Shown piece after piece: positions 5,064 through 55,006 of a DNA stretch of 64,000 bases. Position 1 is the stretch's first letter, and each line of letters begins with the position of its first letter. A program made the position numbers and the translations under genes. The notes below the pieces were generated by a model, which ran no database searches, was not told where the DNA came from, and saw only the letters and a program-made list of their open reading frames with translations. The stretch lies in contig JBCBUK010000002.1 of NCBI GenBank assembly GCA_039818205.1, positions 256,001 through 320,000 of the forward strand, in the 5' to 3' direction. The DNA comes from Verrucomicrobiota bacterium (lineage in GTDB: Bacteria; Verrucomicrobiota; Verrucomicrobiia; Opitutales; Cerasicoccaceae).

Positions 5064-6008
5064 CTATATAGGCTTTGTAATGCAAAGTAGAAACGTTGCA
5101 ACACAATGGTCATCAATGCTTATTGAGCGAAGTTCAGGACAAAATTTTGGGCGTTCGCTTTCGACCAATTGTCTGGCCACGTTCCAGGCGGGTTCTGGTA
5201 CCGATTCTGGCGGAATATCTCCCAGTGCTTTGTTAGTCCCAACCAGGTGGCGAATTAGGAATTCATATTCTGCCCCAGAATTCTCGGCCCATTCTCGGTA
5301 TTGGTTGAATCGAATGCGGTTGGGGCGTCCGGTGTTCTGAACCATCATGCGATGGCAAGCAGGAGAGGTTTGTAGCCACGCCAATTCCCCCCAGGATTTG
5401 AAAAGCCCTAGGCAACGGAGATCGATGACGTGTAGCATCCGGCCGCCGGGTCTGAGCCGTTCATAGCATAGTTCCAGTAGCGGCATTGGGTCGAGAACGT
5501 GTTGTAATACGCTGTTGCTTAGAATCAGGTCATACTCGGAGTCGTCTACTCTGAGGTGGTCCTCGGCTGGGACTCCCTGGACGAGTCGAAAGGCATCGTA
5601 GGTGGTCGCAATTGCTTCGCTTGGCAGTGCTGCCTTTCCGGTTCGTTTTTCTTCGCGCTCTTTTAAAATCTGGGCGACTTGCAGTTCCTTCTCGCGATCG
5701 TGGTGGGATTGGAATCGTTCGAAAAAGGTCACGGAATCGGCACCGCGTGCCCGCATCAGATACCCACCCGCGAGGGAATCGCCTGGGCCGAGCTCACAGA
5801 CATCACCGCGGTAAGCGTTAGGTCCGCTCAGCAGCTGCTCAAACAAGCCGACATACCATTCGGCATAGTCGGCCGACTTTTCTGCGGAATAGCGTTGATG
5901 TCGCTTTCCACTGCCGAAACTACCAATGCCGAGTCGTGTGCAAATCCCAAGGACGCTGTCCGTTGCGATATAGTATGCTCTGGTAAGTGATTTAGCGATG
6001 GCGGCCAT
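5064..6008 (-). CDS. Class I SAM-dependent methyltransferase
   Basis: VCELGPG motif I, YDLILSNSVLQHV, RLRPGG; directly downstream of wzt. Confidence 0.85.
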   Translation of the reverse strand: MAAIAKSLTRAYYIATDSVLGICTRLGIGSFGSGKRHQRYSAEKSADYAEWYVGLFEQLLSGPNAYRGDVCELGPGDSLAGGYLMRARGADSVTFFERFQSHHDREKELQVAQILKEREEKRTGKAALPSEAIATTYDAFRLVQGVPAEDHLRVDDSEYDLILSNSVLQHVLDPMPLLELCYERLRPGGRMLHVIDLRCLGLFKSWGELAWLQTSPACHRMMVQNTGRPNRIRFNQYREWAENSGAEYEFLIRHLVGTNKALGDIPPESVPEPAWNVARQLVESERPKFCPELRSISIDDHCVATFLLCITKPI

Positions 6009-6068
6009 GATCTTTACCGGCTGTGTGACGAATCGAGATCATGCCAACCTAATTAGCGCTTGGCGAGA

Positions 6069-6884
6069 TCACGAGGCTTTCCGCGCCTCAGACTCCAATA
6101 ATTCCAGCCCTGCATTGACGTCGGTCGTATCTGAAAGCACCTGTCCACTCTTCAGCACAATGACACGCCCACAGAGGTTTCGAATCTTCTCGGAATCGTG
6201 GCTGACAAAAATGATCGTGCGATCCTCCTCTTGGGTTAGCTCGCGCATCTTCTTGAGGCTCTTGGCCTGAAATTCTTTGTCACCGACCGCGAGCACCTCA
6301 TCGACGATCAATATCTCAGAATCTAGATGAGCGGCGACCGAAAACGCTAGCCGGACATACATGCCCGATGAGTAGCGCTTAACGGGTGTGTCGAGGAAGC
6401 GCTCGACTCCGGAGAACTCAACAATCTGATCAAACTTCAGGCCAATTTCCTTTCTGGGCATGCCCAAAATGGACCCATTGAGGAAGATGTTTTCGCGCCC
6501 GGTGAGCTCCGGGTGAAAACCGGTGCCAACCTCGAGCAGACTGGCGAGTCGCCCTTGGATCGTCATCTTGCCGGTTGAAGGGGTGACGATCCGGCTCAGC
6601 GTTTTTAGGAACGTCGATTTCCCTGCGCCGTTTCGGCCAATCAGCCCAATGCGTTCGCCCGGATGGATGGTGACATCGATATTCTTGAGCGCCCAGAAGT
6701 CTTCATCGGTTTCGGGTTGGTGTGTCTCATGAGCTTTCTTGGAAAGAAACTTGAAAGGCGATTTTAACAGCCGAGTAACGTCCTCATTGATCCGCGAGTA
6801 GCCCGGCATCTTTTGCCCGTTGGGCAAGTGATGTATTCGGTATTTCTTACCGAGGTTTTCGACTTTGATCGCAAAATTGTCCAT
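6069..6884 (-). CDS. wzt: Polysaccharide ABC exporter ATP-binding subunit (Wzt/TagH/RfbB family)
   Basis: Walker A GRNGAGKST, GFHPELTGRENI, signature YSSGM, Walker B ILIVDE, VSH. Confidence 0.93.
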   Translation of the reverse strand: MDNFAIKVENLGKKYRIHHLPNGQKMPGYSRINEDVTRLLKSPFKFLSKKAHETHQPETDEDFWALKNIDVTIHPGERIGLIGRNGAGKSTFLKTLSRIVTPSTGKMTIQGRLASLLEVGTGFHPELTGRENIFLNGSILGMPRKEIGLKFDQIVEFSGVERFLDTPVKRYSSGMYVRLAFSVAAHLDSEILIVDEVLAVGDKEFQAKSLKKMRELTQEEDRTIIFVSHDSEKIRNLCGRVIVLKSGQVLSDTTDVNAGLELLESEARKAS

Positions 6885-6929
6885 GTGCTTCGTGCTGCCG
6901 GTATCAGGTCCCAGTTGTCGTGCTTTAGG

Positions 6930-7817
6930 TTAGATGATGTCCGCGAACCAGGATTCGCTACTACGGAAGAAACGGATGCCAAACCAGCAGACGGCCACCG
7001 TCGCGACCATTGAGACCACCAGACCCGGTAGGTAGAGTGTTGCGCTATCCAAGATGGCCCAGCGGAAGCCATCGACAACGCCGACCATCGGATTGAGCGA
7101 ATAAATGAAGCGCCAGGCTTCCGGCACCTTGTCGCTGCTGAATCCCACTGGTGTTATGTATAAGCCAATCTGAATGACGAACGGCAGGATATGTTTGAAA
7201 TCACGATAGCGAACGTTCAACGCGGCGACCAAAACCCCAACGCCAAATGAGAGCGTGCCGGCGAGCAAAAGCAACGGCAGTAGGCAGATCAGCCTCCAGG
7301 TGAAGGAGACGTCAAACAACAGCATCAGCGCAAACAGCAGCACCAAGGATATAACAAAGTCGACCAGGCTGACCAGGAGTGAGCTGGCAGGTAATATTAA
7401 TCGCGGAAAATAGATCTTCGCGACAATACTGGTGTTGTTCGTCATCGATAGGGCGACATTTGTCAGGCCCTCGGAAAAGAACTGCCAAACAATCACGCCA
7501 GAGAAAACCATGACCGCATACGGATAGGGAGCGTCCTTGGCCAATCCAGCGACGTAGCCAAAAACGATCGTCATCACGGCCATCATCAGGATGGGTCGCA
7601 AAACTGACCAAAAGATGCCGACTGCCGTTTGCTTGTAGCGGACTATAAAGTCACGCCAGGCTAAGAATCCGAAGAGTTCGCGGAAGCGCCAGATCTCGTC
7701 CCAGGGGACCATCGCGAACTTGGCGGCATCTACTTCAACCCGATGGTTCTTGTACCGATCAGGCAATGGCTGATTGGCGTAGTCCTGTGGTGTGTCGGTG
7801 GTCTTAGCTTCTGACAT
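6930..7817 (-). CDS. wzm: Polysaccharide ABC exporter permease (Wzm/TagG/RfbA family)
   Basis: RDFIVRYKQTAVGIFW, KIYFPRLILP, LNVRYRD, LNPM, FADII C-terminus. Confidence 0.93.
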   Translation of the reverse strand: MSEAKTTDTPQDYANQPLPDRYKNHRVEVDAAKFAMVPWDEIWRFRELFGFLAWRDFIVRYKQTAVGIFWSVLRPILMMAVMTIVFGYVAGLAKDAPYPYAVMVFSGVIVWQFFSEGLTNVALSMTNNTSIVAKIYFPRLILPASSLLVSLVDFVISLVLLFALMLLFDVSFTWRLICLLPLLLLAGTLSFGVGVLVAALNVRYRDFKHILPFVIQIGLYITPVGFSSDKVPEAWRFIYSLNPMVGVVDGFRWAILDSATLYLPGLVVSMVATVAVCWFGIRFFRSSESWFADII

Positions 7818-7976
7818 TCGTGTGCATCAACGCAGTTAATCCTCCGAAAGGTAATTGGGTGCCAGCCTTGGTGGCGACAATTTTTCCTTGGCGTATGCGG
7901 TTGGGAGGATCACCTCGGTAATTGATAGTATCCGGATTCGTCCGTGGAGGAGGCGAACGGATTCAGCGGGTGCTCG

Positions 7977-8990
7977 CTATGGACGAGCACCTTCCGGATA
8001 AGGTTTGCCTTGGAGGAGATCCATGTCGGCTTCGACCATGATCTTGGCGAGGCCCTTCATGCGAGTCTGTGGTTCCCAGCCGAGCTTCTCCTTCGCCTTG
8101 GAGTAATCGCCAATCAGCAGGTCTACTTCAGCTGGGCGGAGGAACCGCTCGTCAAAGTCCACGTAATCCTTCCAGTCGAGATCCACGGCTTCAAACGAGG
8201 CATCAAGGAAATCACGGATCGAATGTGTTTCGTTGGTTGCGAGCACGTAGTCGTCAGGCTCGTCTTGCTGAAGCATGCGCCACATGCCTTCGACGTATTC
8301 CTTAGCAAAGCCCCAGTCGCGCTTGGAGTCGAGGTTGCCGAGGAAGAGCTTGTCTTGCTTGCCGAGCTTGATGGCTGCGGCAGCGAGTGTGATCTTGCGC
8401 GTTACAAAGGTTTCACCGCGGCGTGGGGACTCGTGGTTGAAGAGGATGCCGCTGCAAGCAAACATGTCGTAGGACTCACGATAGTTGACCGTGAGCCAGT
8501 GGGCCATCACCTTGGCACAGGCATAAGGCGAACGTGGCCAGAACGGCGTCGTTTCCTTTTGTGGGATCTCTTGAACCTTGCCGAACATCTCGGAGGAGGA
8601 CGCTTGATAAAAGCGAACCTTTTTGCCGATTCCGGCTTCAACGATTGCCTCGAGGATGCGACCGGCTCCCGCACCGGTGGCGTCTACGGTGTACTCCGGA
8701 ATGTCGAAGCTGACCCGTACGTGGCTTTGGGCGGCCAGATTGTAGATCTCATCCGGTTGCAGTTGGTAGAGGAGTTTCACCAGGGCAACAGAATCGCTCA
8801 GGTCACCATAGTGTAGGTGAAGCTTCGCGTCTTCTCCGTGCGTCTGGTGGTTGAGGTGGTCAATTCGCCCACGGTTCATTGAGCTCGAACGGCGCACAAT
8901 GCCGTGAACCTCGTAGCCCTTAGATAGTAGCAGTTCAGCAAGATAAGAACCGTCTTGCCCGGTAATGCCTGTGATCAGTGCCTTCTTCAT
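7977..8990 (-). CDS. gmd: GDP-mannose 4,6-dehydratase
   Basis: [58 protein letters not shown]. Confidence 0.97.
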
Positions 8991-9005
8991 TGTAAAATTC
9001 GTCTA

Positions 9006-9995
9006 TTAGTTGCCGTGGTAGCGGTCCACTTGTGACTCGACGAGGCGTCGAACCATTTCCTCGAATCGAACGGTGTTCTCCCAGCCGAGTAGACGGCGGG
9101 CCTTCGAAGGATTGCCGCAAGGCGCGTAAGGTTCAACCGTTGTCACCAGGTCGGGATCATGCTTTACAAAGTCGCGCCAGTTCAAGTCCAAGCAATCAAA
9201 GGCGGTTGCGACGAGCGTCTCGACCGAGTGGAGTTTGCCGGTCGCGAGGATGAAGTCATCGACCGGGTCTGATTGAAGAATCGACCACATGCCGTTGACG
9301 TAGTCCGGAGCCCATCCCCAGTCGCGCTGCCCTTTGAGGCTGCCGAGCTGAAGGTCTTTCTGCTGGCCCAGTTTGATCCGAGCGGCTGCGCGAGCGATCT
9401 TCATGGTGACAAAGGTGTCACGCCGGCGGGGAGACTCGTGGTTGTAAAGGATCGCGGAGCAAGTCGGCAGACCATATGCCGTGCGATAAATGCGACCCAT
9501 TTCCTGGGAAAACGCTTTCGCAGCGCCGTAAGGCGTCGTCGGGTAGATCGGTGTCTGCTCGTCTTGAGGAGAGTGAGTGGGAGAGCCGAAGACTTCACTA
9601 CTCGAAGCGTAGAGGAAGCGCGGTGGCTCGTCCAGGTCGCGAATGATCTCCAAAAGGCGTAGGGTCGCCATGCCAACGCTCTCAACCGTGGTTTCCGGGA
9701 GCTCGAGGCTTAGGCGCGGGCTGGATTGGCCAGCAAGGTGGTAAAACTCCGACGGTTGAGCTTTATTAATGATGCGGCGTAGGTGGGTCGCATCTTCGAA
9801 GGCTCCCGTATGGAGGAAAAGCTTCTTCTTAAAGATTGATTCATCGTCAACCAAATGACGGATGTTGCCACTCTGCAGTGACTCCGGACGATGGACTAGT
9901 CCATGGACCTCGTATCCCTTCTCCAGCAGCAGCTCACACAGGTAGGATCCGTCCTGACCAGTGATTCCGGTAATAAATGCTGCCTGCTTGCTCAT
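9006..9995 (-). CDS. gmd: GDP-mannose 4,6-dehydratase paralogue (divergent)
   Basis: [41 protein letters not shown] at 9995 (MSKQAAF) preferred because the longer ORF adds a non-homologous leader. Confidence 0.85.
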   Translation of the reverse strand: MSKQAAFITGITGQDGSYLCELLLEKGYEVHGLVHRPESLQSGNIRHLVDDESIFKKKLFLHTGAFEDATHLRRIINKAQPSEFYHLAGQSSPRLSLELPETTVESVGMATLRLLEIIRDLDEPPRFLYASSSEVFGSPTHSPQDEQTPIYPTTPYGAAKAFSQEMGRIYRTAYGLPTCSAILYNHESPRRRDTFVTMKIARAAARIKLGQQKDLQLGSLKGQRDWGWAPDYVNGMWSILQSDPVDDFILATGKLHSVETLVATAFDCLDLNWRDFVKHDPDLVTTVEPYAPCGNPSKARRLLGWENTVRFEEMVRRLVESQVDRYHGN

Positions 9996-10153
9996 GTGCT
10001 TCGAAGTTTTTTCAAAAATAGGGGAGACGCTTCTGCAAAAGGCGAGTGTTATGATCAAGAGTTCGAGCCAATGCAAGCAATCCTTGCAGCTCTAACTACG
10101 GCTAAAATGGACTTGGCATTTTTGAGATTATGGTACAACTTCGGATCTCTAGC

Positions 10154-10915
10154 ATGAAAAACCCACAGTTTATTGCTCTTGGTGCCGGTATTGCTGCTAT
10201 CGCTGTTGCATTCATTTTTCTCCTCCCAGAGGGGGATGAATCGGCCCCTTCTGAAGGCGGTTCGGCGGAACATTCGACCAGCTCCCATTTAGAAAACGAG
10301 GAGGTTGCGGCTTCCGAGTGGATTGAGACTGAGGTAGAGCCGAAGTCGGAAGAGGCAGCGGACGCTAGCCTTGAAGACAAGGGCGAATTCATTGCGGCAA
10401 GCATTGATGGCCCAACGTCGCTTTCTCCTGCAATCCTCGATATGATCCAGCACGAGTATTACGGTATTGGTGACGTTCTTGATGTAATGCCATCCGAAGG
10501 ACCGGAACGTGTTGCAAACTTGATTGATGCTTATCGCGCCAGTGGTAATCGGCCGGGCCATTTTCAAGATGCGTTGATGAACGAGCTGTCCTATGAGGAC
10601 GAGGGCAATACCAATATTTATGCGCTCATGATCTCGGAATTGGTTAGTGGCGACCCGGAGGCTCGCCAGCGTTCCTATAACAATATCATGTATTATGAGG
10701 ATGAAGGCATCATCGAATACCTGGAAAAAGTGAAAATTCCGGATGGTGATTACGAGCTCGGTCAGATGTTGCATGAGCTGAAGGACTGGTTGAATACCCC
10801 AGGTTATTGGGAAGTTTATGGTGACAAGTACGCCAAAGCCAACGACGCAGAACGTCAGCAAATGTATAACGATTTGTTGAAGCAAGCGGAAGCAAACCGC
10901 ACCGATAAGCAGTAG
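10154..10915 (+). CDS. Hypothetical membrane-anchored acidic helical protein
   Basis: MKNPQF then TM, Glu/Ser-rich linker, helical C-terminal domain. Confidence 0.75.
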   Translation: MKNPQFIALGAGIAAIAVAFIFLLPEGDESAPSEGGSAEHSTSSHLENEEVAASEWIETEVEPKSEEAADASLEDKGEFIAASIDGPTSLSPAILDMIQHEYYGIGDVLDVMPSEGPERVANLIDAYRASGNRPGHFQDALMNELSYEDEGNTNIYALMISELVSGDPEARQRSYNNIMYYEDEGIIEYLEKVKIPDGDYELGQMLHELKDWLNTPGYWEVYGDKYAKANDAERQQMYNDLLKQAEANRTDKQ

Positions 10916-11125
10916 TTTTTTTGGTTAAGCACACGATTAATATATCGTCCTAATTTACAGCCGCCTATATGAATAATTCATTGAACCTCCGAAATTCGTA
11001 GCTCCTTATTCATAAATAATTTCCAATAAATAAACTTTACAGAAATTAATCTTAGGATAGCCTTTGACCAATTCCGAGCTTACCTCTTGGAATAGTTATT
11101 AACCAACAAAATAACCTACACGACG

Positions 11126-11986
11126 ATGAAACTGACTAAGTCGATTACCATCGCTCTCCTAGCAGGAGCGACATCTATCAGTGCGTTCGCCGCTGGTGGT
11201 AAGCACACCACCAACATTGCGACTCGCATTTTCGAAGACAACGGCCGTAACGGCTGGGTTGCAGTTCGCGCTACCCACCGTGACATCGCTCTCGCTTCTG
11301 CGTCAGCTCTTAACTTCTCTTTGAACAACAACGGCCGCCAGGCTCGCCTTGTTCTTTTTGAAGCACAGACTGGTGAGTTCACTTTCTTCTGCGTAGAAGA
11401 TGGTCCAGTTAACAACGCGACCTACTATGCCTTGGGCGGTACCTTCTCTCTCGACGCTGCCGGTGTCCCAGACGATACTGGACCTTATCCACGTCCGGAC
11501 GCACAAAACACTGACCCAGACATTCCGTTCGCTGGTAACATGAGTGTTTCCCTTGGAACCGAGGGCGAGTTCGTTGCTGGACCAGCAACTGGTAACGGTG
11601 TTGCTAACGAGCCAACTCGTGGTGGCCCTGGCTTGTTCACTCTTGGTAATACCAATTCTGGTGATCGTAATGTAACTGAAGGCATCTTCCAGTTCGATTT
11701 CACCCCATTCGGTAACATTGTTAGCGAAGAAGGTTTTATTTTCGGTGGTAATGTCTTCACCAATGGTCGCACCCTCCGTGTTGCTGGTTCCACAATCGTT
11801 ACTGCTTTCGGTGGCGCACGTGGCACTCGTCTTCCAGGTGTTCTGATCGACGTCAATGGCGCAACTCTTACCGGTTACCCAACTGAGTCGAACTTCACAA
11901 TGATTTCTCGTGCACTCACGGACGAAGATTTCAAGACCATCTACGACAACGCTACTTACAACAATCTCTTCGAGCTTCTTCCTTAA
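11126..11986 (+). CDS. Hypothetical secreted protein, likely highly expressed
   Basis: Sec signal peptide ending AFA; Gly/Asn/Thr/Phe-rich mature region; skewed codon use (GCT, GGT, CGT, TTC, AAC, ACT); own terminator. Confidence 0.88.
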   Translation: MKLTKSITIALLAGATSISAFAAGGKHTTNIATRIFEDNGRNGWVAVRATHRDIALASASALNFSLNNNGRQARLVLFEAQTGEFTFFCVEDGPVNNATYYALGGTFSLDAAGVPDDTGPYPRPDAQNTDPDIPFAGNMSVSLGTEGEFVAGPATGNGVANEPTRGGPGLFTLGNTNSGDRNVTEGIFQFDFTPFGNIVSEEGFIFGGNVFTNGRTLRVAGSTIVTAFGGARGTRLPGVLIDVNGATLTGYPTESNFTMISRALTDEDFKTIYDNATYNNLFELLP

Positions 11987-12020
11987 TCGAAGATTGTTGA
12001 AAGACGTTTAAGATTTCATG

Positions 12021-12050
12021 CCGGGACGCAAACGCGTCCCGGTTTTTTTT
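12021..12050 (+). terminator. Strong intrinsic terminator
   Basis: CCGGGACGC-AAAC-GCGTCCCGG followed by T8. Confidence 0.92.
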
Positions 12051-12116: not shown

Positions 12117-13187
12117 ATGCTATATTACGACGCGACCAACAGTTTGCGTGCGAAGACGAAATCGGGTCTCCAGCGTGTGGCGCAGCGCCTTAGAGCCAGT
12201 TTGTCTCAGCAGATGCCGCTGGAGCCGGTGGTTTGGAGCAATCGCCAAGTCGGTTTTCTGGGCGCTGAGTCCAAACAGCGGATCTCATTTGGGGCGGGCG
12301 ATTGCCTCTTGGTCCCAGACTTGTTTTCGGAAGAGGATCGAGTTGGGTTCGGTGACTTTGTCAGCGGTTGCTCGGCATTTACCGTTGCGATATTTCATGA
12401 TGCTATCCCGCTCAAGTTCCCAGAGTTCACGTGGCCCCACTCAGTGCGGAAACATCCACGCTACATGAAAGACCTCGCCCGTTTTGACCGGGTGCTGGCG
12501 GTCTCCTCCCAAAGCCGAGATGAGCTCGTTGGCTATTGGCAGTGGACGGGCCTCGCTGACATGCCAAAGGCCGAGGTGGTCCCGTCTGGTGCCGACATAG
12601 ATGCCGATCGGCCGCGGAACCGGACGCCGCGCACGAACGTTGGTCGGCAGATTACTCAGATCGGTATTTTGGAGCCGCGAAAGAATCAGGTAGTTTCTCT
12701 GGCCGCAGCCCGCCTATTGAAGGCGCAGGGGGTCGATTTTGAGCTTGGTTTCATTGGCCGGGTTAACCCCCATTACGGAAAGCCGATCCAACAGGAGATC
12801 AAGCAAACGGCGAAAGCAGGTGTACCGGTGCGATACCATGGTCGGCTTTCGGATGCCGAGATGGCGGAGTTGATTAGTGCCACCCGATTGACGCTTTTGC
12901 CCTCTCGCGCCGAGGGTAATGGCCTGCCCGTATTGGAGTCGCTTTGGCAGGGCTTGCCGGTGATCTGTTCGCGTTTGCCGGTTGCGGTCGACTGGGCGAC
13001 GGGTGATGCGGTGCGCATCGTAGACCCGATGACTCCAGACGCACTGGCGGAGGCAATGCGCGAATGGCTCGAGGACGATGCTTCCTATCAGAAGGCGGTT
13101 CAAGCGGCATGCGCCATGGATTTGCCCACCTGGGAGGAATCTGCTACCGCGATTAAGGCCGTCGTCGAATGCGGCATCGCCGAATAA
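12117..13187 (+). CDS. Glycosyltransferase, GT4 (MtfB/WbaZ-like)
   Basis: SGLQRV, FHDAIPL, GILEPRKNQ, PSRAEGNGLPVLES (EX7E). Confidence 0.9.
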   Translation: MLYYDATNSLRAKTKSGLQRVAQRLRASLSQQMPLEPVVWSNRQVGFLGAESKQRISFGAGDCLLVPDLFSEEDRVGFGDFVSGCSAFTVAIFHDAIPLKFPEFTWPHSVRKHPRYMKDLARFDRVLAVSSQSRDELVGYWQWTGLADMPKAEVVPSGADIDADRPRNRTPRTNVGRQITQIGILEPRKNQVVSLAAARLLKAQGVDFELGFIGRVNPHYGKPIQQEIKQTAKAGVPVRYHGRLSDAEMAELISATRLTLLPSRAEGNGLPVLESLWQGLPVICSRLPVAVDWATGDAVRIVDPMTPDALAEAMREWLEDDASYQKAVQAACAMDLPTWEESATAIKAVVECGIAE

Positions 13188-13189
13188 GC

Positions 13190-14389
13190 TTAGATGCCGA
13201 CCTTCTTGGCGGCGTAGGCCATGGCTTCGGCGACGATCTCCAAGTCCTCCTCCGTATGGCGAGCCGACATGGAGGTGCGAATCAGGTCTTTGCCCGGAGG
13301 TACCGCTGGCGCAATCGACATGATCGAGAAAACGCCTTTTTCCAGGAGGGCTTGCCAGAAACGATAGGCCTTTTCCTTTTGCCCCATGATGATGGGCACA
13401 GCTGGGGTTTCCGATTCCCAGATGTCTAAGCCGAGTCCGCGGAGCAATTCCTTGTACCGCTTGGTGTTTTCCCAGAGTTGCTCATGGTGCTGGGGCTCGG
13501 TTTTCAAAATTTCGAGGGAGGCTGATGCTGCATAAGCCTGAGGGGGGCTTATGGCGGCAGAAAAGATGGTCTGCTTACTGTGCGTGCGCAGGTATTCGAT
13601 CACGTCTTTGGAGCCCGCGACAAAGCCGCCAGTGCTGCTCAACGACTTCGAAAAGCTGCCGGTGATAACATCGATTTCGTCTTCGAGGCCAAAATGCGCG
13701 GCGGTTCCGCGACCTCCGGGCCCAAGGACACCAAATCCATGAGCGTCGTCCATGACGTAAAAGCAGTTGTGCTCCCGACAAACGTCAACGATCTCAGGCA
13801 CGCGGCCAATATGGCCTTCCATGGAGTAAACGCCCTCAAATACAACGATTTTCGGCGTGTCGGGCTTCTCGAAGGAGAGCACTTCCTTGAGGTCGGTCGG
13901 ATTGTTGTGTGCGAATCGCTCGACCTGAGCCTGAGTCAGGCCGATGCCCGCCCAAAGTGACGAGTGCACATTCTTATCGACGACGATAATGTCGCCCTTC
14001 TGCGCAAAGGATTGAACCGACGACATGCAAGAAATGTAACCCGCGACGCTGATGTGGCAGGCTTCTTTGCCGATAAAGTCAGCGAACTTTTCCTCGAGTT
14101 CGATGTGGAACTTGCGGCTGCCGTTGGCCAGACGCGCACCGGTCGTGCTGCTGCCCCATTCCTTCAGACCCTTTCCGGCGGCTTCGACGACTTTGGGGTG
14201 ATTGCTCAGACCAAGGTAGTCATTGCTGCAAAGCATGACGTATTCCTTGCCGTCTCGGATCACACGGGAGCCTGCCTGACGCTCGAAGGTGTGGTAGTAG
14301 GGGTTGTAGCGCTTGCGCAACCGGGTTACTTCGTCGTCCTGGCAGCGTTTGACGATGGAATTCTTGGCTTTCGTGAAAATCGACAGCAT
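13190..14389 (-). CDS. PLP-dependent alpha-oxoamine synthase, serine palmitoyltransferase-like
   Basis: YNPYY, SNDYLGL, GSSTTGARLANGS, VHSS, EGVYSMEG, DDAHG, GSFSKS (PLP Lys), IFSAA, PAVP..DLIRTS. Family assignment is secure; Spt versus BioF/Kbl is inferred. Confidence 0.85.
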   Translation of the reverse strand: MLSIFTKAKNSIVKRCQDDEVTRLRKRYNPYYHTFERQAGSRVIRDGKEYVMLCSNDYLGLSNHPKVVEAAGKGLKEWGSSTTGARLANGSRKFHIELEEKFADFIGKEACHISVAGYISCMSSVQSFAQKGDIIVVDKNVHSSLWAGIGLTQAQVERFAHNNPTDLKEVLSFEKPDTPKIVVFEGVYSMEGHIGRVPEIVDVCREHNCFYVMDDAHGFGVLGPGGRGTAAHFGLEDEIDVITGSFSKSLSSTGGFVAGSKDVIEYLRTHSKQTIFSAAISPPQAYAASASLEILKTEPQHHEQLWENTKRYKELLRGLGLDIWESETPAVPIIMGQKEKAYRFWQALLEKGVFSIMSIAPAVPPGKDLIRTSMSARHTEEDLEIVAEAMAYAAKKVGI

Positions 14390-14554
14390 GAAACGTATAA
14401 AAGAAAAAAACCTAGTGGTTTTCTAGTCAGGTTAAAGTTAAAAGATTAGAGAATACTCCCCGTTTGCAAACATAGTCTGAGATTACTTTTGCTGTTTTGA
14501 GAACGCCGCGGATTAAAAAACGTTTCCATTTAGTCGGATTCTCCCAATTGTCCG

Positions 14555-15400
14555 ATGATGCCGGTTTGGTCGCGACTTGTCCCAGGAAAACAGTGGTCCC
14601 TCTTTGCAGGGAAGGTTTCGGGCATGCCAGCGAGCTTTGCGGACCTTCAAGAGCTGCGCCCTCCAGGGGATCGTTCCTGGGCTGACCCCTTTCCGATAAT
14701 TCGTGACGAGCGTTGTTGGATTTTCTTCGAAGAGGTCATCCACCACCCCAAAAAGGGGCGCCTCGCGGTAATGGAGCTGTTTGCTGATGGTTCGCTGGGA
14801 GCAATTGATGTCATTCTCGATAAACCATACCATCTTTCATACCCATTTGTTTTCGAATTCGATGGCGCCTGGTGGATGATTCCCGAGTCCCGACAAAATC
14901 GAACCGTGGACCTTTATCGCTGTGAGGAGTGGCCCGCAAAATGGGCCTACGAGAAAACGATCATCTCCGGCGAGGAGATTGTCGACGCAACCCTGTGGGA
15001 GCACGGGGGGTGCTGGTGGCTCTTTGGTGGGGTGCCGGAGCAAAAGGGGGGCAACGCCTCGGGTTTGTTGGATCTCTTTTGGGCGGATTCGCCGCTCTCG
15101 GATCAGTGGACGCCGCATCCTCAATGCCCAGTGATTGCGGGGAACGATTGCTCGCGGCCAGCGGGCAAAGTCTTTCGCCACGACGGCAAGTTGATTCGTC
15201 CAGCCCAGGATTGTTCGGTGCGCTACGGCTACGCGGTGAAAATGATGCAGATCGAGGAACTCACCCCCGATTGCTACCGAGAGACCGAAATCCAGACCTA
15301 CCTACCTGATTTTGCTCCGGGTCTCCGCGCCACTCACACCTTCAACCGCGCGGAAGACTGGCTCCTTGCCGACGGTGCCCGCCGCATCTGGCCGGGCTAG
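14555..15400 (+). CDS. GINT1 N-terminal-like five-bladed beta-propeller (GH43/GH32-type fold)
   Basis: WADPF, IFFEE, HLSYPFVF, WMIPES, VDATL, WTPHP, RPAG, RPAQDC..RYG repeats as in the N-terminal domain of glucosamine inositolphosphorylceramide transferase-family proteins. Confidence 0.75.
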   Translation: MMPVWSRLVPGKQWSLFAGKVSGMPASFADLQELRPPGDRSWADPFPIIRDERCWIFFEEVIHHPKKGRLAVMELFADGSLGAIDVILDKPYHLSYPFVFEFDGAWWMIPESRQNRTVDLYRCEEWPAKWAYEKTIISGEEIVDATLWEHGGCWWLFGGVPEQKGGNASGLLDLFWADSPLSDQWTPHPQCPVIAGNDCSRPAGKVFRHDGKLIRPAQDCSVRYGYAVKMMQIEELTPDCYRETEIQTYLPDFAPGLRATHTFNRAEDWLLADGARRIWPG

Positions 15401-16492
15401 TTAAATTGCGGTGCGACGCTTTTTGAGGAGGCGCTCGAAGAGGTCGAGGTAGCGGTCGGCGTTGTCGCCGGACTGGAATTTTTGCTGGGCAAATTGGCGG
15501 GCCCGCTGGCTCATATTGGCGCGGAGTCGCTGGTCGTCGACGAGTAGCCCAAGCTTGTCCCGGAACTCGTCGTCGTCGTTGAGCGGGACCGCGTAGCCGC
15601 TGAGGTCCGGCAGAAAGCACTCACGGACGCCTCCCGTACAATAAGCGACCACCGGAAGCGCGCACCATTGAGCTTCGACTAGGGCATTGGGCTGAGACTC
15701 TTTCTGCGAAGCGAAAACGGCGAGGTCTGCCGCACAAAGGAGTGGGAAGGGATCGGGGACGTTTCCGAAAAAGGTCACGTGATTTTCTAGGCCAAGTTCG
15801 CGGCAGGTGGACTCGCATTCACGGCGGGTGGGGCCATCGCCAGCTAGCCAGAGGCGCCAATTTTCGCTGGGGCGATAGGCGCCAAGGGCTTTGATGAGCT
15901 CGGCATGCCCTTTACCCGGCCGGAACGTGGCGACTTTGATGAAAATATTGGCGTCGCCAACCTCATGTTCGTCCCGGGTTTGTTCGCGAAGCTCGGCGCG
16001 TTTAGACCAGTCCCAGTTGCGGCCAACGGCGTTTGGGGCAACGAGCACACGGTCATGCGCGACACCGATTTCCTTAGCCCGCTCGGCGGTCCACTGCGCA
16101 TTGCAAACGACGGCGTCGTCGACACATAAACTTTTCTCGTAGGGGGGCGGGATAGCATTCCCCGTCCGCAGCGTGCCGACGATAACGGATTCCGGTGTGC
16201 GTTGTTTCAGGCGCATACCACGGCTGTTGGCAACCTTGCCCATCAGCAAAATAATGTCCGGTTTCTCGTTGCGTAGTGTCGTGGTTAGCCCCGGTGTCCA
16301 GATGTTGAGGTGGGTATCGACCGGCTGGAGCTCAATACGTCTGGCTTTGAGTCCTCCGCTGAGCGGACCGCCCGGGCGGAAGGTCACGACAAAGCAGTCA
16401 TGCCCCGCCGCCGCAAATCGGTTCGCCAAATGAACCGTATGTTTTTCAGTCCCGCCGGTGCGCAACCAATCCTGGAGAATCGCAATTTTCAC
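15401..16492 (-). CDS. Glycosyltransferase, GT4
   Basis: GGTEKH, FRPGKGH, SQKESQPNALVEA. Confidence 0.9.
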   Translation of the reverse strand: MKIAILQDWLRTGGTEKHTVHLANRFAAAGHDCFVVTFRPGGPLSGGLKARRIELQPVDTHLNIWTPGLTTTLRNEKPDIILLMGKVANSRGMRLKQRTPESVIVGTLRTGNAIPPPYEKSLCVDDAVVCNAQWTAERAKEIGVAHDRVLVAPNAVGRNWDWSKRAELREQTRDEHEVGDANIFIKVATFRPGKGHAELIKALGAYRPSENWRLWLAGDGPTRRECESTCRELGLENHVTFFGNVPDPFPLLCAADLAVFASQKESQPNALVEAQWCALPVVAYCTGGVRECFLPDLSGYAVPLNDDDEFRDKLGLLVDDQRLRANMSQRARQFAQQKFQSGDNADRYLDLFERLLKKRRTAI

Positions 16493-17298
16493 AGCTTGTA
16501 GTAAGCTCGCATCACGCGTTCGGTCAGGTTCCAGGTGCTGAGTCGGATTAGCAACGGAGCAATCGTTGCTTGAAAGAGGTCGCCACTAATCACGCTATCG
16601 CTTTTGCCCTTTGCGAGCGCTTTGCGCAGGTCGCGGGCGGCGCGATCGGGAGTCGGAGCCGCATTGAGATTCTTATCAACGCTTTCCCAGGCTTGAAGGA
16701 GGCGCCCGTCGAGGTCGGCGGGGCGTTTCGAGGCATTGTTGAACCCAGTTTTGTAGTCACCCGGTTGAAAATCTATCACCGCTACGCCGCTACCAGCGCA
16801 TTCGGTTTGCAAGCTGCGTGTAAAATTGGAGAGCCCCGCTTTTGCGGCATTATAGAGACTGAAGTAGGGCAGGGGAAACTCGCGAGCGAGCGATGCGACA
16901 TTCACGATGACACCGCTGCCGCGGGCAAGCATATGCGGGTAAAACTGGTGGCATAACGCGATCGGGCCATGTAAGAGCACCCGTAGCTGCTGGCCGATAT
17001 CGCCCGGGTCTATATCCTCAAATGCGCCAAAAACGCCGTTGCCCGCATTGTTTACCAGAATATCAAGTTCCTGGAAAAGTGGGCCCATACCGCGGGAAAA
17101 TGCTTCCATGCTGCGCCCATCGCCAAGATCCAGCGCGACGGGGTGCAGGTTTTCGTGCTCCGGTAGGCGGGTTCCATCACGGCTCGTTGCCCAGACCTCG
17201 ACTCCCTCCGCCAATAGCATTTCGGCAAACGCACGGCCCAGGCCTGAGCTCGCGCCCGTGACCAGTGCACTCTTATAGCGTTGTGACAAAGGTTGCAT
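16489..17298 (-). CDS. Classical SDR oxidoreductase (candidate 3-ketosphinganine reductase)
   Basis: TGASSGLG, LVNNAG, catalytic YNAAK, PGDYKTGF; ATG at 17298 avoids overlap with the divergent gene; 4-nt overlap with the downstream GT. Confidence 0.85.
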   Translation of the reverse strand: MQPLSQRYKSALVTGASSGLGRAFAEMLLAEGVEVWATSRDGTRLPEHENLHPVALDLGDGRSMEAFSRGMGPLFQELDILVNNAGNGVFGAFEDIDPGDIGQQLRVLLHGPIALCHQFYPHMLARGSGVIVNVASLAREFPLPYFSLYNAAKAGLSNFTRSLQTECAGSGVAVIDFQPGDYKTGFNNASKRPADLDGRLLQAWESVDKNLNAAPTPDRAARDLRKALAKGKSDSVISGDLFQATIAPLLIRLSTWNLTERVMRAYYKL

Positions 17299-17341
17299 AA
17301 ACGGGGGATGCTCCCCTAAGTTCCGCGACTGGTCAATCGTG

Positions 17342-18481
17342 ATGTCATCAACAAAATCCACACCCATATTACTGGTCACGCATGAGTTCTTTCCGAAGCG
17401 CGGGGGTATCGCCACCTATGCCGAAGAGATGGCATTGGCGGCTCAGGCAGAGGGACTTTCGGTCGACGTTTGGGCGTCGGCTCGCCCCGGCTGGGATGGC
17501 CGCGAGACATCCTTCGCCCTGAAGCCAATTTGGAATAATGGGCGCCTGGGTTGGCCCTGTCGACTGGCGACCGCGAAGGTGCTTCGTGCGGACGCGGAAC
17601 AGGTGCGTGAGAGCATTCTCTACCTGCCGGAACCGGGGCCGATGATGACGCTACTCTACTCATCGTTCCTTGGTTTGCCTGACCCTCGACGGTTGGTACT
17701 GACCTTGCATGGGACCGAAATTTTGCGTTTTGCGAGAACACCGCATCGACGCTGGTTGTTCGCGAAACTATTGAAGCGGGCGGATCGCATTGGCGTTGTT
17801 TCCGAGTTTAACGAGAATCTCTTGCGGGAGACGTTTCCCTCAGTGGAAGCCGAGAAAATTCGGGTAGTTCCGGGTGCGCTACGCCATGACTTCGCAGATC
17901 CGCCAAAGCGGAAACGTGCGGTGGATGATGGCAAGGTGCGAGTCATTACGGTTAGCCGAATTCACCCACGGAAAGGACAGCATTACGTGATTGAAGCGTT
18001 GGCAGGTATGCCGAAAGAGCTTCTCAAGAAAGTCGAGTACCACATTGTTGGCCCGATCGTAAAATCCTATTACGCGGATGAATTGAAAGCCAAGGCGCAA
18101 GAGGCCGGTTTCCCGGTGATCTTTGTGGGTGAGGTGAATGATGCCGATCTGCCGCAGCACTATGCCGATGCGGATATTTTCGCGATGACGAGTATCCAGA
18201 GCGGGATCAGTGTCGAGGGATTTGGCCTCGTTTATTTGGAGGCCGCCGTTTGCGGTTTGCCGGTCGTTGCCCACAGCACGGGCGGTGTTCCCGAGGCGGT
18301 GCGCCACGGGAAGAGCGGATTCTTGGCCGAGCCGGGCGATACTAAAACGCTGCAGAAGTATTTCGAAGACCTGATTGGCTCGGCTGACCTCCGGCAGTCA
18401 ATGGCCGATGCGGGAAAAGCCCGCGCGGCCGAACTTTCCTGGGCCTACAATGTGCGGGCACACTTCGACGGCTTGGATTGA
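17342..18481 (+). CDS. Glycosyltransferase, GT4 (PimB-like)
   Basis: HEFFPKRGGIATY, HGTEI, RIHPRKGQ, VEGFGLVYLEA, GGVPEAV. Confidence 0.92.
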   Translation: MSSTKSTPILLVTHEFFPKRGGIATYAEEMALAAQAEGLSVDVWASARPGWDGRETSFALKPIWNNGRLGWPCRLATAKVLRADAEQVRESILYLPEPGPMMTLLYSSFLGLPDPRRLVLTLHGTEILRFARTPHRRWLFAKLLKRADRIGVVSEFNENLLRETFPSVEAEKIRVVPGALRHDFADPPKRKRAVDDGKVRVITVSRIHPRKGQHYVIEALAGMPKELLKKVEYHIVGPIVKSYYADELKAKAQEAGFPVIFVGEVNDADLPQHYADADIFAMTSIQSGISVEGFGLVYLEAAVCGLPVVAHSTGGVPEAVRHGKSGFLAEPGDTKTLQKYFEDLIGSADLRQSMADAGKARAAELSWAYNVRAHFDGLD

Positions 18482-19497
18482 TGCTGGGATATCTGCTCCG
18501 CAAATCGCTTTTACTGCTGGTGCTGTTTTTGACGGCTAGCGGTCTGCTATTCGTGGCGAGTCGCGCGGCTCTGGGGGATGGTATTCTCTTGGCGCAGAAA
18601 GTGCCGGATCCCGAACGCGCTGCACAGATCGAAGAGGCGCTGGGATTAAATGATCCGCTGCCGATTCAATATATCGCCTATCTTCGCAATTTCGTGTCCG
18701 GGGCGTGGGGCGCCAGCCTAATCAACCAGCGGTCGGTGCGCGGGGAGGTGAGCCAGCGTTTGCCCGCGACATTGGAGTTGGCTATCTCCGCTTTGATCAT
18801 CGGCGTCATCGTGGGAGTCGGAACGACCTTGCTGGCGGAGGCCCTGCCGGGGACTTGGGTGAAGCGTCTGCCGGAGGCTTTGGGCGCTCTTGGGCTGACG
18901 GTTCCCATTTTTTGGTTGGGATTTCTTTTGATTATCGTTGGGGCGGTTTGGCTGGACTGGTTCCCGGCGTCGGGGCGCTTTGACTTTACGCTGAGTCGTC
19001 CCAGCGGGACAGGCTTTTTGATTATAGACAGCCTGGCCTCGGGAAGCGGCGAGGCGTTGCTGTCTGCCCTTAAACATTTAGCGCTGCCAGCGGTGTGTTT
19101 GTCGTTTTTTCCGGCGGCAGTGGTCAGTGGTTTGTTGCGGGCTCGATTGCAGGAGCCCCAGTGGCAGCGTTTGCAAATTGCGCTGCGAGCAAAGGGATTG
19201 TCTGCCTCGAGCATCTCGCTAAAGCATGGCCTTCGGCTGTTGGGGGCACCCCTGGTAATTGCTCTCGGGACGAGCGTCGGCCTTTTGCTGGGCGGGTCGG
19301 TGCTTACTGAAACCGTATTTGCCTGGCCGGGGATGGGACGCTATTTAGTGGGAGCGGTGCTTGATCGCGACCTATTCGTAATCCAGTATGCTTTGCTGCT
19401 GGTAATGCTGTTGATCTTTGCGTCCGTTTGGCTATCCGAGATTCTGGCAGCCGTTTTGAACCCTCGATTGACCCAGGGAGGTGGCGATGAAGATTAA
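18481..19497 (+). CDS. Peptide/nickel ABC transporter permease (DppB/OppB-like)
   Basis: LGLNDPLPIQY, RLPATLELA, PIFWLG, HLALPA, RAKGL, ETVFAWPGMG. Confidence 0.9.
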   Translation: MLGYLLRKSLLLLVLFLTASGLLFVASRAALGDGILLAQKVPDPERAAQIEEALGLNDPLPIQYIAYLRNFVSGAWGASLINQRSVRGEVSQRLPATLELAISALIIGVIVGVGTTLLAEALPGTWVKRLPEALGALGLTVPIFWLGFLLIIVGAVWLDWFPASGRFDFTLSRPSGTGFLIIDSLASGSGEALLSALKHLALPAVCLSFFPAAVVSGLLRARLQEPQWQRLQIALRAKGLSASSISLKHGLRLLGAPLVIALGTSVGLLLGGSVLTETVFAWPGMGRYLVGAVLDRDLFVIQYALLLVMLLIFASVWLSEILAAVLNPRLTQGGGDED

Positions 19498-20251
19498 CTA
19501 TTGGTTATTCGCCGTCGCACTCATTGCGTTGGTCGGTTTGGTTTGGACGCCCTATGATCCCTTGGCGCAGGAATTTCGCGATTTGCGACTCGGCGGTTTT
19601 TCGGTTGCTCATCCGGTGGGGGTCGATGGGCTGGGACGCGATGTCTTCAGCCGGCTCTGGCGAGGCCTCGGGAATACGGCGATGTTGTCGCTTGCGGCCC
19701 TTGCGTTGAACTTCCTGGTGGCGACGATAATCTTGGTTCTCGAGCGTTCGACTGGGCGGTTGGGGCGCGCGATTATTCCCCTGATTGCGGCAGTGTGGCT
19801 TGGCTTGCCGGTTATTTTTCTGAGTTTGATTTTGTTAGTCTTTTTGCCGCCAGGGGCTGCGACCTTGGTGTTGGCGGTTGCTTTGGGCAATACACCAATG
19901 ACTTATCGGCAGCTACGTATTTCGTGGCGAGAACAGCGTCGAGCCCAATACGTGGAGGCCAGTATGGCGCTTGGCGCACGTGGTTGGCCTATGTTTCGCC
20001 GGACACTTTGGCCGAACTTGGCACCTGATATCGCGGCTTTAGCTCGGTTGATTTTTGCGCTAGGTGCCTTGGAGTTGAGCGGCCTGGCCTTCCTTGGGCT
20101 GATCGGTGACCCGGACTTTCCGGAGCTGGGGGCCATGCTACGACAGTATCAGCCGTTTCTCAGTCAGGCACCATGGCTCGTGCTCGCGCCGGGTGTTCTC
20201 TTGAGCTCGCTCTTATTTGTCGTCCATCAGCGCAAGCCGGAGGAGCGTTAA
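19487..20251 (+). CDS. Peptide/nickel ABC transporter permease (DppC/OppC-like)
   Basis: HPVGVDGLGRDVFSRL, EAA-like YVEASMALGA, LAFLGL, PELGAML; GGAGG before ATG 19487. Confidence 0.9.
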   Translation: MKINYWLFAVALIALVGLVWTPYDPLAQEFRDLRLGGFSVAHPVGVDGLGRDVFSRLWRGLGNTAMLSLAALALNFLVATIILVLERSTGRLGRAIIPLIAAVWLGLPVIFLSLILLVFLPPGAATLVLAVALGNTPMTYRQLRISWREQRRAQYVEASMALGARGWPMFRRTLWPNLAPDIAALARLIFALGALELSGLAFLGLIGDPDFPELGAMLRQYQPFLSQAPWLVLAPGVLLSSLLFVVHQRKPEER

Positions 20252-39811: not shown

Positions 39812-39835
39812 CTTTAGTTGCCAGACTTCGTATTG

Positions 39836-40408
39836 ATGAGTGCAAAAATTCAACATGAGATTGACGAGCTAGCGGCAGTGGTTGCTGATACGCGTCTCCT
39901 TGCGCCCGGAATTGAATCCTCGGGGCAGCGCCTGATTGATGTCTTGCGCGGCGGAGGCAAGATTTTGACCTGCGGTAATGGCGGTAGTGCTACCGATGCT
40001 CTGCATTTAGCCGAGGAGTTTGTGGGACGGTATAAAGGAGAGCGCCCGTCATTGCCGGCGATCTGCTTAAGTGCGGATGTTTCGGTGCTGACCTGCATTG
40101 CCAATGACTATGGGTTTGAAGCTGTCTTTTCTCGTGCAGTTGAAGGCTTGGGTAAGCCAGGGGATGCGTTAGTGGGAATATCCACAAGTGGAAACTCCGA
40201 GAACATATTACGCGCATTTAGCGTGGCTCGTCAGCGGGGGATGGTAACGATTCTCCTGAGCGGAAAATCTGGCGGCGCGGCAAAAGGGCAATGTGATTTT
40301 GAGCTGATTGTTCCGAGTGAAACCACTGCTCGAATCCAAGAAATCCACACACTTATCCTCCATTGTTGGTTGGAGATGGTAGAAGCGGAGAATTGGAGCG
40401 CGCAATGA
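39836..40408 (+). CDS. gmhA: D-sedoheptulose-7-phosphate isomerase
   Basis: CGNGGSATDALH, IANDYG, ISTSGNSEN, TARIQEIH. Confidence 0.93.
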   Translation: MSAKIQHEIDELAAVVADTRLLAPGIESSGQRLIDVLRGGGKILTCGNGGSATDALHLAEEFVGRYKGERPSLPAICLSADVSVLTCIANDYGFEAVFSRAVEGLGKPGDALVGISTSGNSENILRAFSVARQRGMVTILLSGKSGGAAKGQCDFELIVPSETTARIQEIHTLILHCWLEMVEAENWSAQ

Positions 40409-41403: not shown

Positions 41404-41417
41404 GAAAAATTAATCCT

Positions 41418-42395
41418 ATGAAACCTGAATACCAACTCGTTACCGGTGCCGCCGGTTTTATCGGCCAGCGCACAGCGATGCAGCTCCTTGAACGGGGGGA
41501 CAAAGTCGTTGGCATCGATAATATGAATGACTACTACGATGTCCGCCTAAAGCGGCATCGCCTTGAGCAGTTGGAGCAACACCCCAACTTTACCTTTCGC
41601 CAAATAGATATCGAAGACAAAGCGGCGGTGGATCAGTTATTTGATGAGTTCCCGATGAAAACGGTGTTCAACCTGGCGGCCCGTGCCGGGGTCCGCTATA
41701 GCATGGAGAATCCATTTATCTACCTGAGCACAAACTCGGAAGGGACGTTGAATCTCTTAGAAGCGATGCGAAGCCATGGACTCAAGAAAATTGTCCTCGC
41801 ATCGACTTCGTCGCTCTATGCAGGGCAAAAGATGCCCTTTACCGAGGACCTGCCGGTGAACACGCCATTGTCTCCTTACGCTGCCTCGAAGAAGGGCGCC
41901 GAGGTGATGGCCTATAGTTATCATCACCTCTATGGATTTGATGTTTCGGTGGTGCGGTATTTCACCGTTTTTGGCCCGTGCGGTCGCCCGGATATGAGTA
42001 TCTATCGTTTCATCAAATGGATTGATGAAGGTGTGCCCATTACCTTGTATGGAGACGGTGAGCAAAGTCGCGACTTTACCTTCGTTGAAGATATTGCGGC
42101 GGGGACCATTGCGGCAGAAAAGGAAGTGGGCTACGAAATTTTTAACCTGGGCGGTGGTCGAAATCCGATCTCTTTGAACACAATTATCTCTTGGATCGAA
42201 GAAGCGCTTGGAAAGAAGGTTAGCTATGATAGGCGGCCATTCCACTCGGCGGATATGATGGAAACCTGGGCCGATATCTCCAAAGCTGAGCGATTGCTTG
42301 GCTGGCAACCAACGGTTGATGTTCGTGACGGTTTGCAGCGATCCGTTGATTGGTATTTGGAGAACAAGGAGTGGTTGAAAGATGTCGAAGTCTGA
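41418..42395 (+). CDS. NAD-dependent nucleotide-sugar epimerase (UDP-glucuronate 4-epimerase-like)
   Basis: [43 protein letters not shown]. Confidence 0.9.
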
Positions 42396-48379: not shown

Positions 48380-48412
48380 ACACACTTACTTCGAAGTGCC
48401 TTGGATTGAGCT

Positions 48413-48994: not shown

Positions 48995-49004
48995 TCCCAG
49001 GTTA

Positions 49005-50218: not shown

Positions 50219-50247
50219 ACTCGATTGAATTTTATATCAGCTGATCT

Positions 50248-52538: not shown

Positions 52539-52541
52539 TTT

Positions 52542-53774: not shown

Positions 53775-53796
53775 GGTTTTTGTCTCCAAAATCTTG

Positions 53797-55002: not shown

Positions 55003-55006
55003 TAAA

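Follow-up and report, generated by a model that had tools for sequence, protein, structure and literature searches.

The locus considered here raises the question of whether a compact group of genes can be assigned to sphingolipid-like metabolism in a lineage of Verrucomicrobiota. It lies in a stretch of 64,000 nucleotides from a Verrucomicrobiota bacterium of the family Cerasicoccaceae, order Opitutales (contig JBCBUK010000002.1, positions 256,001 to 320,000); the whole stretch is called the window, and positions without a contig label refer to it, whereas C2-C18 denote contigs, L loci, G genomes and f or g families or genera. The initial annotation described six genes at 12117-18481 as a candidate glycosphingolipid locus, comprising a pyridoxal phosphate (PLP)-dependent alpha-oxoamine synthase, a classical short-chain dehydrogenase/reductase (SDR), a beta-propeller and three glycosyltransferases of family GT4 (here GT4a, GT4b and GT4c). 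Our results showed that the synthase and its partners form a co-inherited but dispersed gene set, probably of an envelope-glycolipid pathway. On balance, the genes predict a glycosylated long-chain-base lipid made independently of the bacterial ceramide synthase bCerS, a reading that we consider rather probable.

The core enzyme is the synthase (13190-14389, minus strand, 399 amino acids (aa), Pfam Aminotran_1_2). Its best match in the PDB was the serine palmitoyltransferase of S. multivorum (SmSPT, 283.6 bits vs 242.5 for the next entry), and its best NCBIfam model was SerpalmtaseCFB (NF047600, Bacteroidota Spt). It scored below the cut-offs for BioF (TIGR00858, 328 against 426) and Kbl (306 against 460). 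Two members of the alpha-oxoamine synthase family were present in the genome, and the second sits on contig C8 among bioA, B, D and C, which were identified from translation and gene order. No Tdh exceeded its cut-off in the genome and no bio or tdh gene occurs near the six-gene block, in agreement with what had been noted. Cysteate synthase (TIGR03844) was also not found. The nearest named orthologues belong to Cerasicoccus arenae (89% identity) and to C. frondis and C. maritimus (86%), so that the bacterium is probably a Cerasicoccus.

Phylogenetic analysis placed the verrucomicrobial enzymes in one long-stemmed clade, with support of 1.0 (FastTree, 184 sequences) and 100 (IQ-TREE, 43 sequences); Sphingomonas-type and Caulobacter Spt, SulA and eukaryotic LCB1/2 were not knowingly included in these trees. 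In the maximum-likelihood tree of 43 sequences, the clade was sister to a Rubrobacter enzyme that has bCerS-like and CerR-like genes beside it (UFBoot 100), and the two together fell within a group of Spt from E. coli BL21, Roseomonas and Pseudomonas (89). Topology tests, based on fast constrained searches with 2000 replicates (a small number), rejected joining the clade to Kbl (approximately unbiased test, p-AU 2e-11) or to BioF (p-AU 4e-4). The resemblance to Bacteroidota-type Spt that had been read from motifs was not borne out as a relationship, as the NF047600 cut-off was missed and sisterhood with these enzymes was disfavored (p-AU 0.016).

The catalytic residues point in the same direction. 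N56, H142, S189, D214, H217, K248, S277, A278 and R371 were invariant in the 62-65 orthologues covering each site, and the invariant PLP and catalytic residues match Asn52, His138, Ser185, Lys244 and Ser273 of SmSPT as well as the conserved Asp, His and Arg (SmSPT numbering according to PMC10196870, transferred through the alignment of SmSPT with the synthase). The cysteate enzyme SulA is reported to carry Lys281 at a diagnostic site at which Spt has Ala (PMC9304779); the equivalent residue, located by a 30-residue count from the PLP lysine, was Ala278 in 65 of 65 orthologues. Given this Ala and the lack of a cysteate synthase match, a cysteate or sulfonolipid type was rejected. Thus, judged by its sequence, the synthase is assigned to a clade of its own among or beside Spt, and is of neither BioF, Kbl nor cysteate type. 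Its predicted substrate is a small amino acid, most likely L-serine.

Co-inheritance was analyzed in a fixed set of 41 genomes, of which 23 contained an orthologue of at least 59% identity and 18 did not, with a strict E-value threshold that we set for each family. A glycosyltransferase of family GT28 resembling monogalactosyldiacylglycerol (MGDG) synthase (C4:181250-182410) was found in all 23 carriers and in none of the 18 non-carriers. Likewise, five other families were absent from every non-carrier: a further GT4, GT4x (C18:6865-8046; 21 of 23 carriers), the SDR (16489-17298, minus strand, 269 aa from the ATG at 17298; adh_short, 137 bits; 20 of 23), GT4c (17342-18481, plus strand, Pfam GT4, divergent from the SDR gene; 19 of 23), a class III aminotransferase similar to FumI (within C4:182407-184427; 15 of 23) and GT4a (12117-13187, plus strand, Pfam GT4, convergent with the synthase; 13 of 23, seven of them at 40% identity or more). 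The claim that the SDR and the GT4 enzymes belong with the synthase was therefore upheld, GT4c being near-core and GT4a an accessory with two paralogues elsewhere in this genome. GT4b (15401-16492, minus strand, Pfam GT4), which overlaps the SDR stop by 4 nt, appears to be a common accessory; it was found in one of five genomes tested, in none of the three of these without the synthase, and not in G077. When only genomes at least 90% complete were considered (n=35), GT28 and GT4x occurred in 20 of 20 carriers vs 0 of 15 non-carriers, and each of the 20 carriers had the SDR or the aminotransferase.

Two cases weigh more than these counts. First, in genus g5, which belongs to the window's own family, the synthase, GT28, GT4x, SDR and GT4c were missing from five of five genomes. 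In two of them (G009 and G012) the syntenic site could be recognized by flanks 67-76% identical to G008; the acyl carrier protein (ACP), dehydratase and ketosynthase were kept there and the rest was gone. Second, G077, a member of another order, possesses the synthase (51% identity), a block of GT4c, ACP and dehydratase (ACP-DH), ketosynthase (KAS) and SDR, and also the aminotransferase, GT28 and GT4x. Among 150 genomes drawn from the phylum, 12 had the clade (11 in the order plus G077), with 8 of 8 genomes of family f22 and 0 of 15 of f27; four further genomes had relatives of 39-41% identity, and the one placed in the tree (G122) grouped with Bacteroidota Spt. Thus, the gene set is not confined to Opitutales but reaches at least one further order of the class. 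It was also observed that the ACP, dehydratase and ketosynthase persist without synthase or glycosyltransferases in g5 and G017 (L144:7344-9508, L145:8056-10870, L146, L147).

The six genes as such do not constitute a conserved locus, contrary to what had been expected. In the loci of C. frondis, C. maritimus and G002 the synthase was accompanied by none of its five neighbours, and in C. arenae only the propeller was kept beside it; the GT4c, SDR and GT4b genes sit elsewhere in congeners, and the tightest partners (GT28, GT4x, ACP-DH and KAS) lie outside the window. On the other hand, parts of the arrangement recur. The GT4c-SDR-GT4b triplet appeared in several families, with GT4b downstream of the SDR in L046, L149, L150, L152, L156 and L158, and GT4a abuts the synthase in L044, L083, L179-L182, L184 and L185. 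Among 55 named synthase loci (2-21 kb each, some of them near-duplicates), at least one partner family was found in 19 and at least three in 13, and the SDR, ketosynthase and ACP/dehydratase occurred together within 10 kb of the synthase in 10. GT4x and the ketosynthase stood beside the synthase in six of seven f22 loci. The fullest clusters (L046, L081, L095 and L184) contained ACP-DH, KAS, SDR, GT4x and GT4a/b/c, often with GT28, and this genome holds all of their members scattered over contigs. A GT9, beside the synthase in 7 of the 55 loci, had no match in this genome. The window is thus a rearranged fragment of a larger dispersed system, with five of its members and one passenger.

The passenger is the beta-propeller, a stand-alone GINT1_N domain of 281 aa (14555-15400, plus strand; PF24793, 150 bits; Atlas 0.97, bacterial clusters). 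It had been taken as evidence for sphingolipid chemistry because of the plant enzyme GINT1, a role that it cannot fill: unlike the plant protein it has no glycosyltransferase domain, and it exceeded the cut-off in only 6 of the 41 genomes, all of this genus, and stood beside the synthase in three of these six. It is a genus-specific passenger or accessory.

Several neighbours of synthase or pathway genes were seen in addition. In both C. arenae and G077 (L057:10001-16724, L177:9396-17450), the synthase gene is convergent with the ATP synthase operon, an arrangement that is either ancestral or a coincidence. A heparinase II/III-like gene lies at most three genes from pathway genes in seven loci (L075, L079, L081, L088, L065, L068 and L103). 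In two loci of other Verrucomicrobiota (L178:8090-10999, L183:8081-10256), a CerR-like gene follows an Spt-like enzyme of a different kind, and the 20 kb read there contained no bCerS.

The partners encoded outside the window suggest what the pathway might do. It had been noted that the window lacks an ACP and a ceramide synthase; this is true of the window, but a dedicated ACP-DH and ketosynthase are encoded at C6:248034-250258, and in many relatives the two genes flank the synthase. The ACP has the invariant phosphopantetheine serine and about 40 extra N-terminal residues, which form three extra helices in a confident, all-helical model (pLDDT 86); a Foldseek search with this model gave no match at E 0.001 or better, and the weaker rows were ACPs. 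It is fused to the dehydratase here and split from it in other genomes. Its N-terminal extension also contains a near-invariant Cys in an L-x-R-C motif (alignment including L120:2034-2447). The ketosynthase is FabB/F-like and keeps the Cys-His-His motifs. A complex predicted for the synthase dimer with the ACP gave a weak pass (0.35 vs 0.07 for the best control; runs 0.49, 0.12 and 0.35), with contacts agreeing at 92% or more and a partner pLDDT of at least 81. It should be noted that passes with a value of 0.60 or under came from 18 of 157 solved complexes, and also from the two mismatches that passed at all; since a weak pass of this kind is more often wrong than right, we relied on synteny instead.

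GT28 matched the structures of MGDG synthase and diacylglycerol beta-glucosyltransferase, both lipid-accepting, and GT4x scored best on exopolysaccharide (EPS) models. The SDR has intact TGxxxGxG, NNAG and S..YxxxK motifs and is a candidate 3-keto long-chain-base reductase. The best solved relative of the aminotransferase was the aminopentol aminotransferase FumI (PDB 6hbs, 354 vs 158 bits for the next), which, as described in PMC3136697, uses pyruvate as acceptor for the 2-amino group of hydrolysed fumonisin, itself a sphinganine-like chain. This similarity may be taken as an independent hint of sphingoid chemistry. Wherever inspected, the aminotransferase gene stood beside one for an SCP2-like protein (both within C4:182407-184427 here), which had no Pfam match (Atlas 0.95, SCP2 in 74% of the cluster) and no match in plasmids or metagenome contigs. 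Finally, a set of ABC transporter, membrane fusion protein (MFP) and TolC genes on C13 is a candidate exporter, and such genes lie near the cluster in L042, L046, L056, L088 and L200.

From these genes, the following pathway may be proposed. The FabB/F-like ketosynthase and the dehydratase, which is FabZ-like, would build or elongate an acyl chain on the dedicated ACP, and the synthase would condense the acyl-ACP with a small amino acid to a 2-amino-3-keto long-chain base. The SDR would reduce the 3-keto group directly, in the manner of the eukaryotic and Bacteroides reductase KDSR and not in the order bCerS, then CerR. GT28 could then add the first sugar to a lipid hydroxyl, and GT4x, GT4c, GT4b and GT4a could extend a lineage-variable oligosaccharide; the sequence in which the sugars are added is guessed from the chemistry of the families. 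The amine may be left free, acylated, or modified by the FumI-like aminotransferase together with the SCP2-like protein encoded next to it, and the ABC/MFP/TolC set may export the product.

A number of observations weigh against this prediction. The synthase missed all Spt equivalog cut-offs (367 against 640 for NF047600, and 328 against 500 and 260 against 670 for the two proteobacterial models), which were exceeded by controls from Parabacteroides, Roseomonas and Pseudomonas. The check by tree and profile thus confirmed an Spt-like enzyme outside the BioF and Kbl groups, but not a place within the Spt clade: both trees put it inside, yet a position outside, and sister to, all Spt references was not rejected (p-AU 0.16). 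Two sites were altered. Of 62 orthologues, 51 have Ala and 11 have Ser at the position of SmSPT Ser81, and a site occupied by Asn in 12 of 13 reference enzymes was Cys121 in 63 of 63; the amino acid used, or the pocket for the acyl chain, may thus be different. According to PMC8895605, Nostoc has an Spt look-alike that did not produce a sphingolipid, although it grouped with BioF homologues. On the model of the Bacteroides-type reductase KdsR (NF049977, BT_0972 type) the SDR scored 111 against a cut-off of 400, fourth among SDR models, and it was not found in two 97%-complete carriers, both of which have the aminotransferase. No bCerS (a YghO-like GNAT) was detected in the genome at E 0.01 (hidden Markov model of four references, six frames), a single bCerS-like query gave one weak match (27% identity) in the 41 genomes, and no sphingosine-kinase-like diacylglycerol kinase was found in this genome. 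ACP-DH was present in 22 of 23 carriers but also in 6 of 18 non-carriers, together with KAS in all three such non-carriers examined; the module thus serves some purpose apart from the synthase. Unrelated amine-catabolic clusters likewise contain FumI-like enzymes, of about 42% identity, and the exporter permease was also present in one of four non-carriers tested. The genomes are related and the counts are not independent events, for which reason no P-value is given. The gene set, its co-inheritance and the intact motifs are observations, but the lipid itself is a prediction.

The negative result for bCerS bears on the nature of the expected lipid. The initial annotation referred to glycosyltransferases acting on ceramide and suggested a genome search for a ceramide synthase of the GNAT type; no such enzyme was matched in this genome. 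The best CerR match (C2:231145-232137, 140 bits) is some 37 kb away from the synthase and could be a generic protein of the epimerase type. Moreover, no acyltransferase recurred beside pathway genes in the neighbourhoods read. Ceramide is therefore not implied, and a base with a free amine, or one modified in some other way, is no less conceivable than N-acylation by another acyltransferase. DUF374 was considered as the N-acyltransferase and rejected as not specific, since it adjoins the cluster once (L042) and is present in two of four non-carriers tested; an MBOAT gene was seen once, in L184. Replacement of lipopolysaccharide as in Sphingomonas was not supported, LpxC being present in 38 of the 41 genomes. 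The ACP-DH-KAS module was also rejected as an obligatory source of unsaturated fatty acids, as desaturases occurred in five of five genomes tested and three f27 genomes lack the module.

These results bear on the most serious alternative, in which the logic is the same but the backbone is not a serine-derived sphingoid base: alanine or glycine would give 1-deoxy bases, or the aminotransferase would convert the amino-ketone to a 2,3-diamine or take off the amine and so leave a glycosylated long-chain diol or triol. BioA, which aminates the product of BioF, offers an analogy for diamine formation. The changes at the Ser81 and Asn sites and the lack of bCerS are in line with it, and so is the finding that every carrier at least 90% complete has the SDR or the aminotransferase, the two without SDR having the latter. 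Furthermore, FumI is described as removing the 2-amino group from a 2-amino-3-hydroxy chain with a 1-methyl end (PMC3136697). However, 8 of 23 carriers gave no match for the aminotransferase, which is thus not needed for the basic product, and Ser is kept at the Ser81 site in 11 orthologues. In SmSPT, Ser81 reaches the substrate carboxyl through water and the serine hydroxyl binds the PLP phosphate (PMC10196870), so that Ala at this site is compatible with serine. We consider this alternative unlikely.

Another explanation is a type II fatty-acid or polyketide mini-synthase, in which the SDR acts as ketoreductase in the cycle of ACP, KAS and DH, the synthase releases the chain, and the ABC/MFP/TolC set exports a glyco-aminolipid surfactant or signal in place of a bulk membrane lipid. 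The SDR gene directly follows KAS in many clusters and exporter genes lie near five of them, as expected from such a system; yet the SDR tracks the synthase and not ACP-DH, being found in none of the six genomes with ACP-DH but no synthase, and the persistence of the genes as scattered single copies across the order would fit envelope housekeeping better than a cluster for a secondary metabolite, which makes this explanation quite improbable. Chance assembly of a Kbl/BioF-like housekeeping enzyme with glycosyltransferases of the neighbouring Wzm/Wzt-Gmd locus is largely refuted and now very improbable, because the lack of conservation of the block in three congeners, the polysaccharide locus at 5064-10076 and the EPS-like GT4x are outweighed by strict co-inheritance, by synteny recurring across families and into another order, and by the presence of BioF elsewhere, the lack of a Tdh over cut-off and the rejected Kbl and BioF groupings.

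The predicted bCerS-independent glycolipid pathway can be compared with known systems. The rhodobacterial ceramide pathway (Caulobacter, E. coli BL21 spt locus) comprises Spt, a dedicated ACP (AcpR), the acyl-ACP synthetase AasR, bCerS and CerR (PMC9386255). The gene set resembles it in that an Spt-like enzyme, whose catalytic residues are the same, is linked to glycosyltransferases and to an ACP of its own. It differs in that no bCerS was found, that the cluster has no CerR-type reductase or acyl-AMP ligase, that the reductase is a classical SDR and that LpxC is kept. The ACP, with its three extra helices, is often fused to the dehydratase and paired with the ketosynthase, and the chain thus seems to be built on the ACP and not loaded from free fatty acid. 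The Bacteroidota route, with the KDSR BT_0972 (PMC9278070) and the GT4 alpha-galactosylceramide synthase BF9343_3149, which shows that GT4 ceramide glycosyltransferases exist (PMC9692976), is similar in the best profile and PDB match of the synthase, in a classical SDR as candidate KDSR and in GT4 enzymes; the likeness to BF9343_3149 is one of GT4 family level. Unlike the Bacteroidota enzymes, the synthase and SDR are below the equivalog cut-offs, the synthase is not sister to them, and GT28 is the tightest partner. The gene set thus belongs to neither the rhodobacterial nor the Bacteroides/eukaryotic pathway as defined.

Other systems share single features. The capnine (sulfonolipid) pathway also employs an alpha-oxoamine synthase using acyl-ACP, SulA/CapB (PMC9304779), but here the site of the diagnostic Lys is occupied by Ala278, and a cysteate synthase was not detected. 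The aminotransferase is closest, among solved structures, to FumI of Sphingopyxis, whose substrate is sphinganine-like; FumI serves catabolism, its substrate being derived from a fungal toxin, whereas the gene here lies beside GT28 and the SCP2-like gene. In the capnine pathway the SDR reductase CapC follows SulA/CapB. The rhizobial AcpXL-FabZXL-FabFXL module is likewise a dedicated ACP with its own dehydratase and ketosynthase that supplies one lipid, but it feeds a lipid A acyltransferase and the ACP set here is linked to an alpha-oxoamine synthase.

Our searches on Spt, sphingolipids, ceramide and aminolipids in Verrucomicrobia and Opitutales and on bCerS surveys, which covered few subscription papers, found no description of this cluster. 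Spt-like proteins were reported in 22 metagenome-assembled genomes of Verrucomicrobiota in PMC11334938, the main text of which does not mention Opitutales; the clade may be among the Spt-like sequences of its supplement. The description of Coraliomargarita in PMC11165907 lists only unidentified lipids. Surveys that call sphingolipid producers by Spt, bCerS and CerR together would miss this gene set, which, if the prediction is true, adds both a lineage and a route to those known. Its enzymes are candidates for making amino-glycolipids that have been seen in the environment without explanation. It may also be an in vivo example of the order in which reduction comes first (KDSR), which is described as unproven in bacteria (PMC11087976). 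The availability of cultured, harmless marine carriers (the three named Cerasicoccus species) and of related lineages without the set allows direct comparative lipidomics. A bolder idea, which at present appears improbable, is that Opitutales use a third bacterial route to sphingoid glycolipids that needs neither bCerS nor CerR, with a purpose-built chain on the extended ACP, a glycosylated non-ceramide base and FumI-like remodelling to a diamino or deaminated backbone. If so, a lineage that is widespread in water and soil would have a membrane-lipid class of a new type, and the FumI family, known for detoxifying fumonisin, might have its native role there.

With regard to the window itself, all six open reading frames were confirmed where annotated, with gaps of exactly 2, 165, 0, -4 and 43 nt, and the assigned families and quoted motifs were present. 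Their strand order is +,-,+,-,-,+ and a terminator-like hairpin with a T run (12020-12050, plus strand; 10 pairs, 8 of them G-C) precedes the first gene and separates GT4a from the gene upstream, which gives five direction blocks instead of the four transcription units counted before. The hairpin (12020-12043) is a consensus match only, 13 such sites being found vs 9.7 expected in shuffled sequences, and a promoter scan was at chance level. None of the six proteins contains a strongly hydrophobic stretch of 19 residues (maximum 1.6). A polysaccharide locus, recognized by Pfam from a Wzm/Wzt-type ABC pair, two genes of the GDP-mannose 4,6-dehydratase family and a methyltransferase (5064-10076), adjoins the six genes and was not seen travelling with the pathway. 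It is followed by genes for two proteins of 261 and 286 aa without Pfam or NCBIfam match, at a dip in G+C to 0.48 (10130-11986). On the other side, a DppB/DppC-like permease pair overlaps the GT4c stop and has no adjacent binding-protein or ATPase gene (18478-20251). Further downstream are genes that, from their translations, we take to encode heptose and Kdo synthesis enzymes (39818-44165) and what is presumably a long exopolysaccharide-type cluster (45867-63433).

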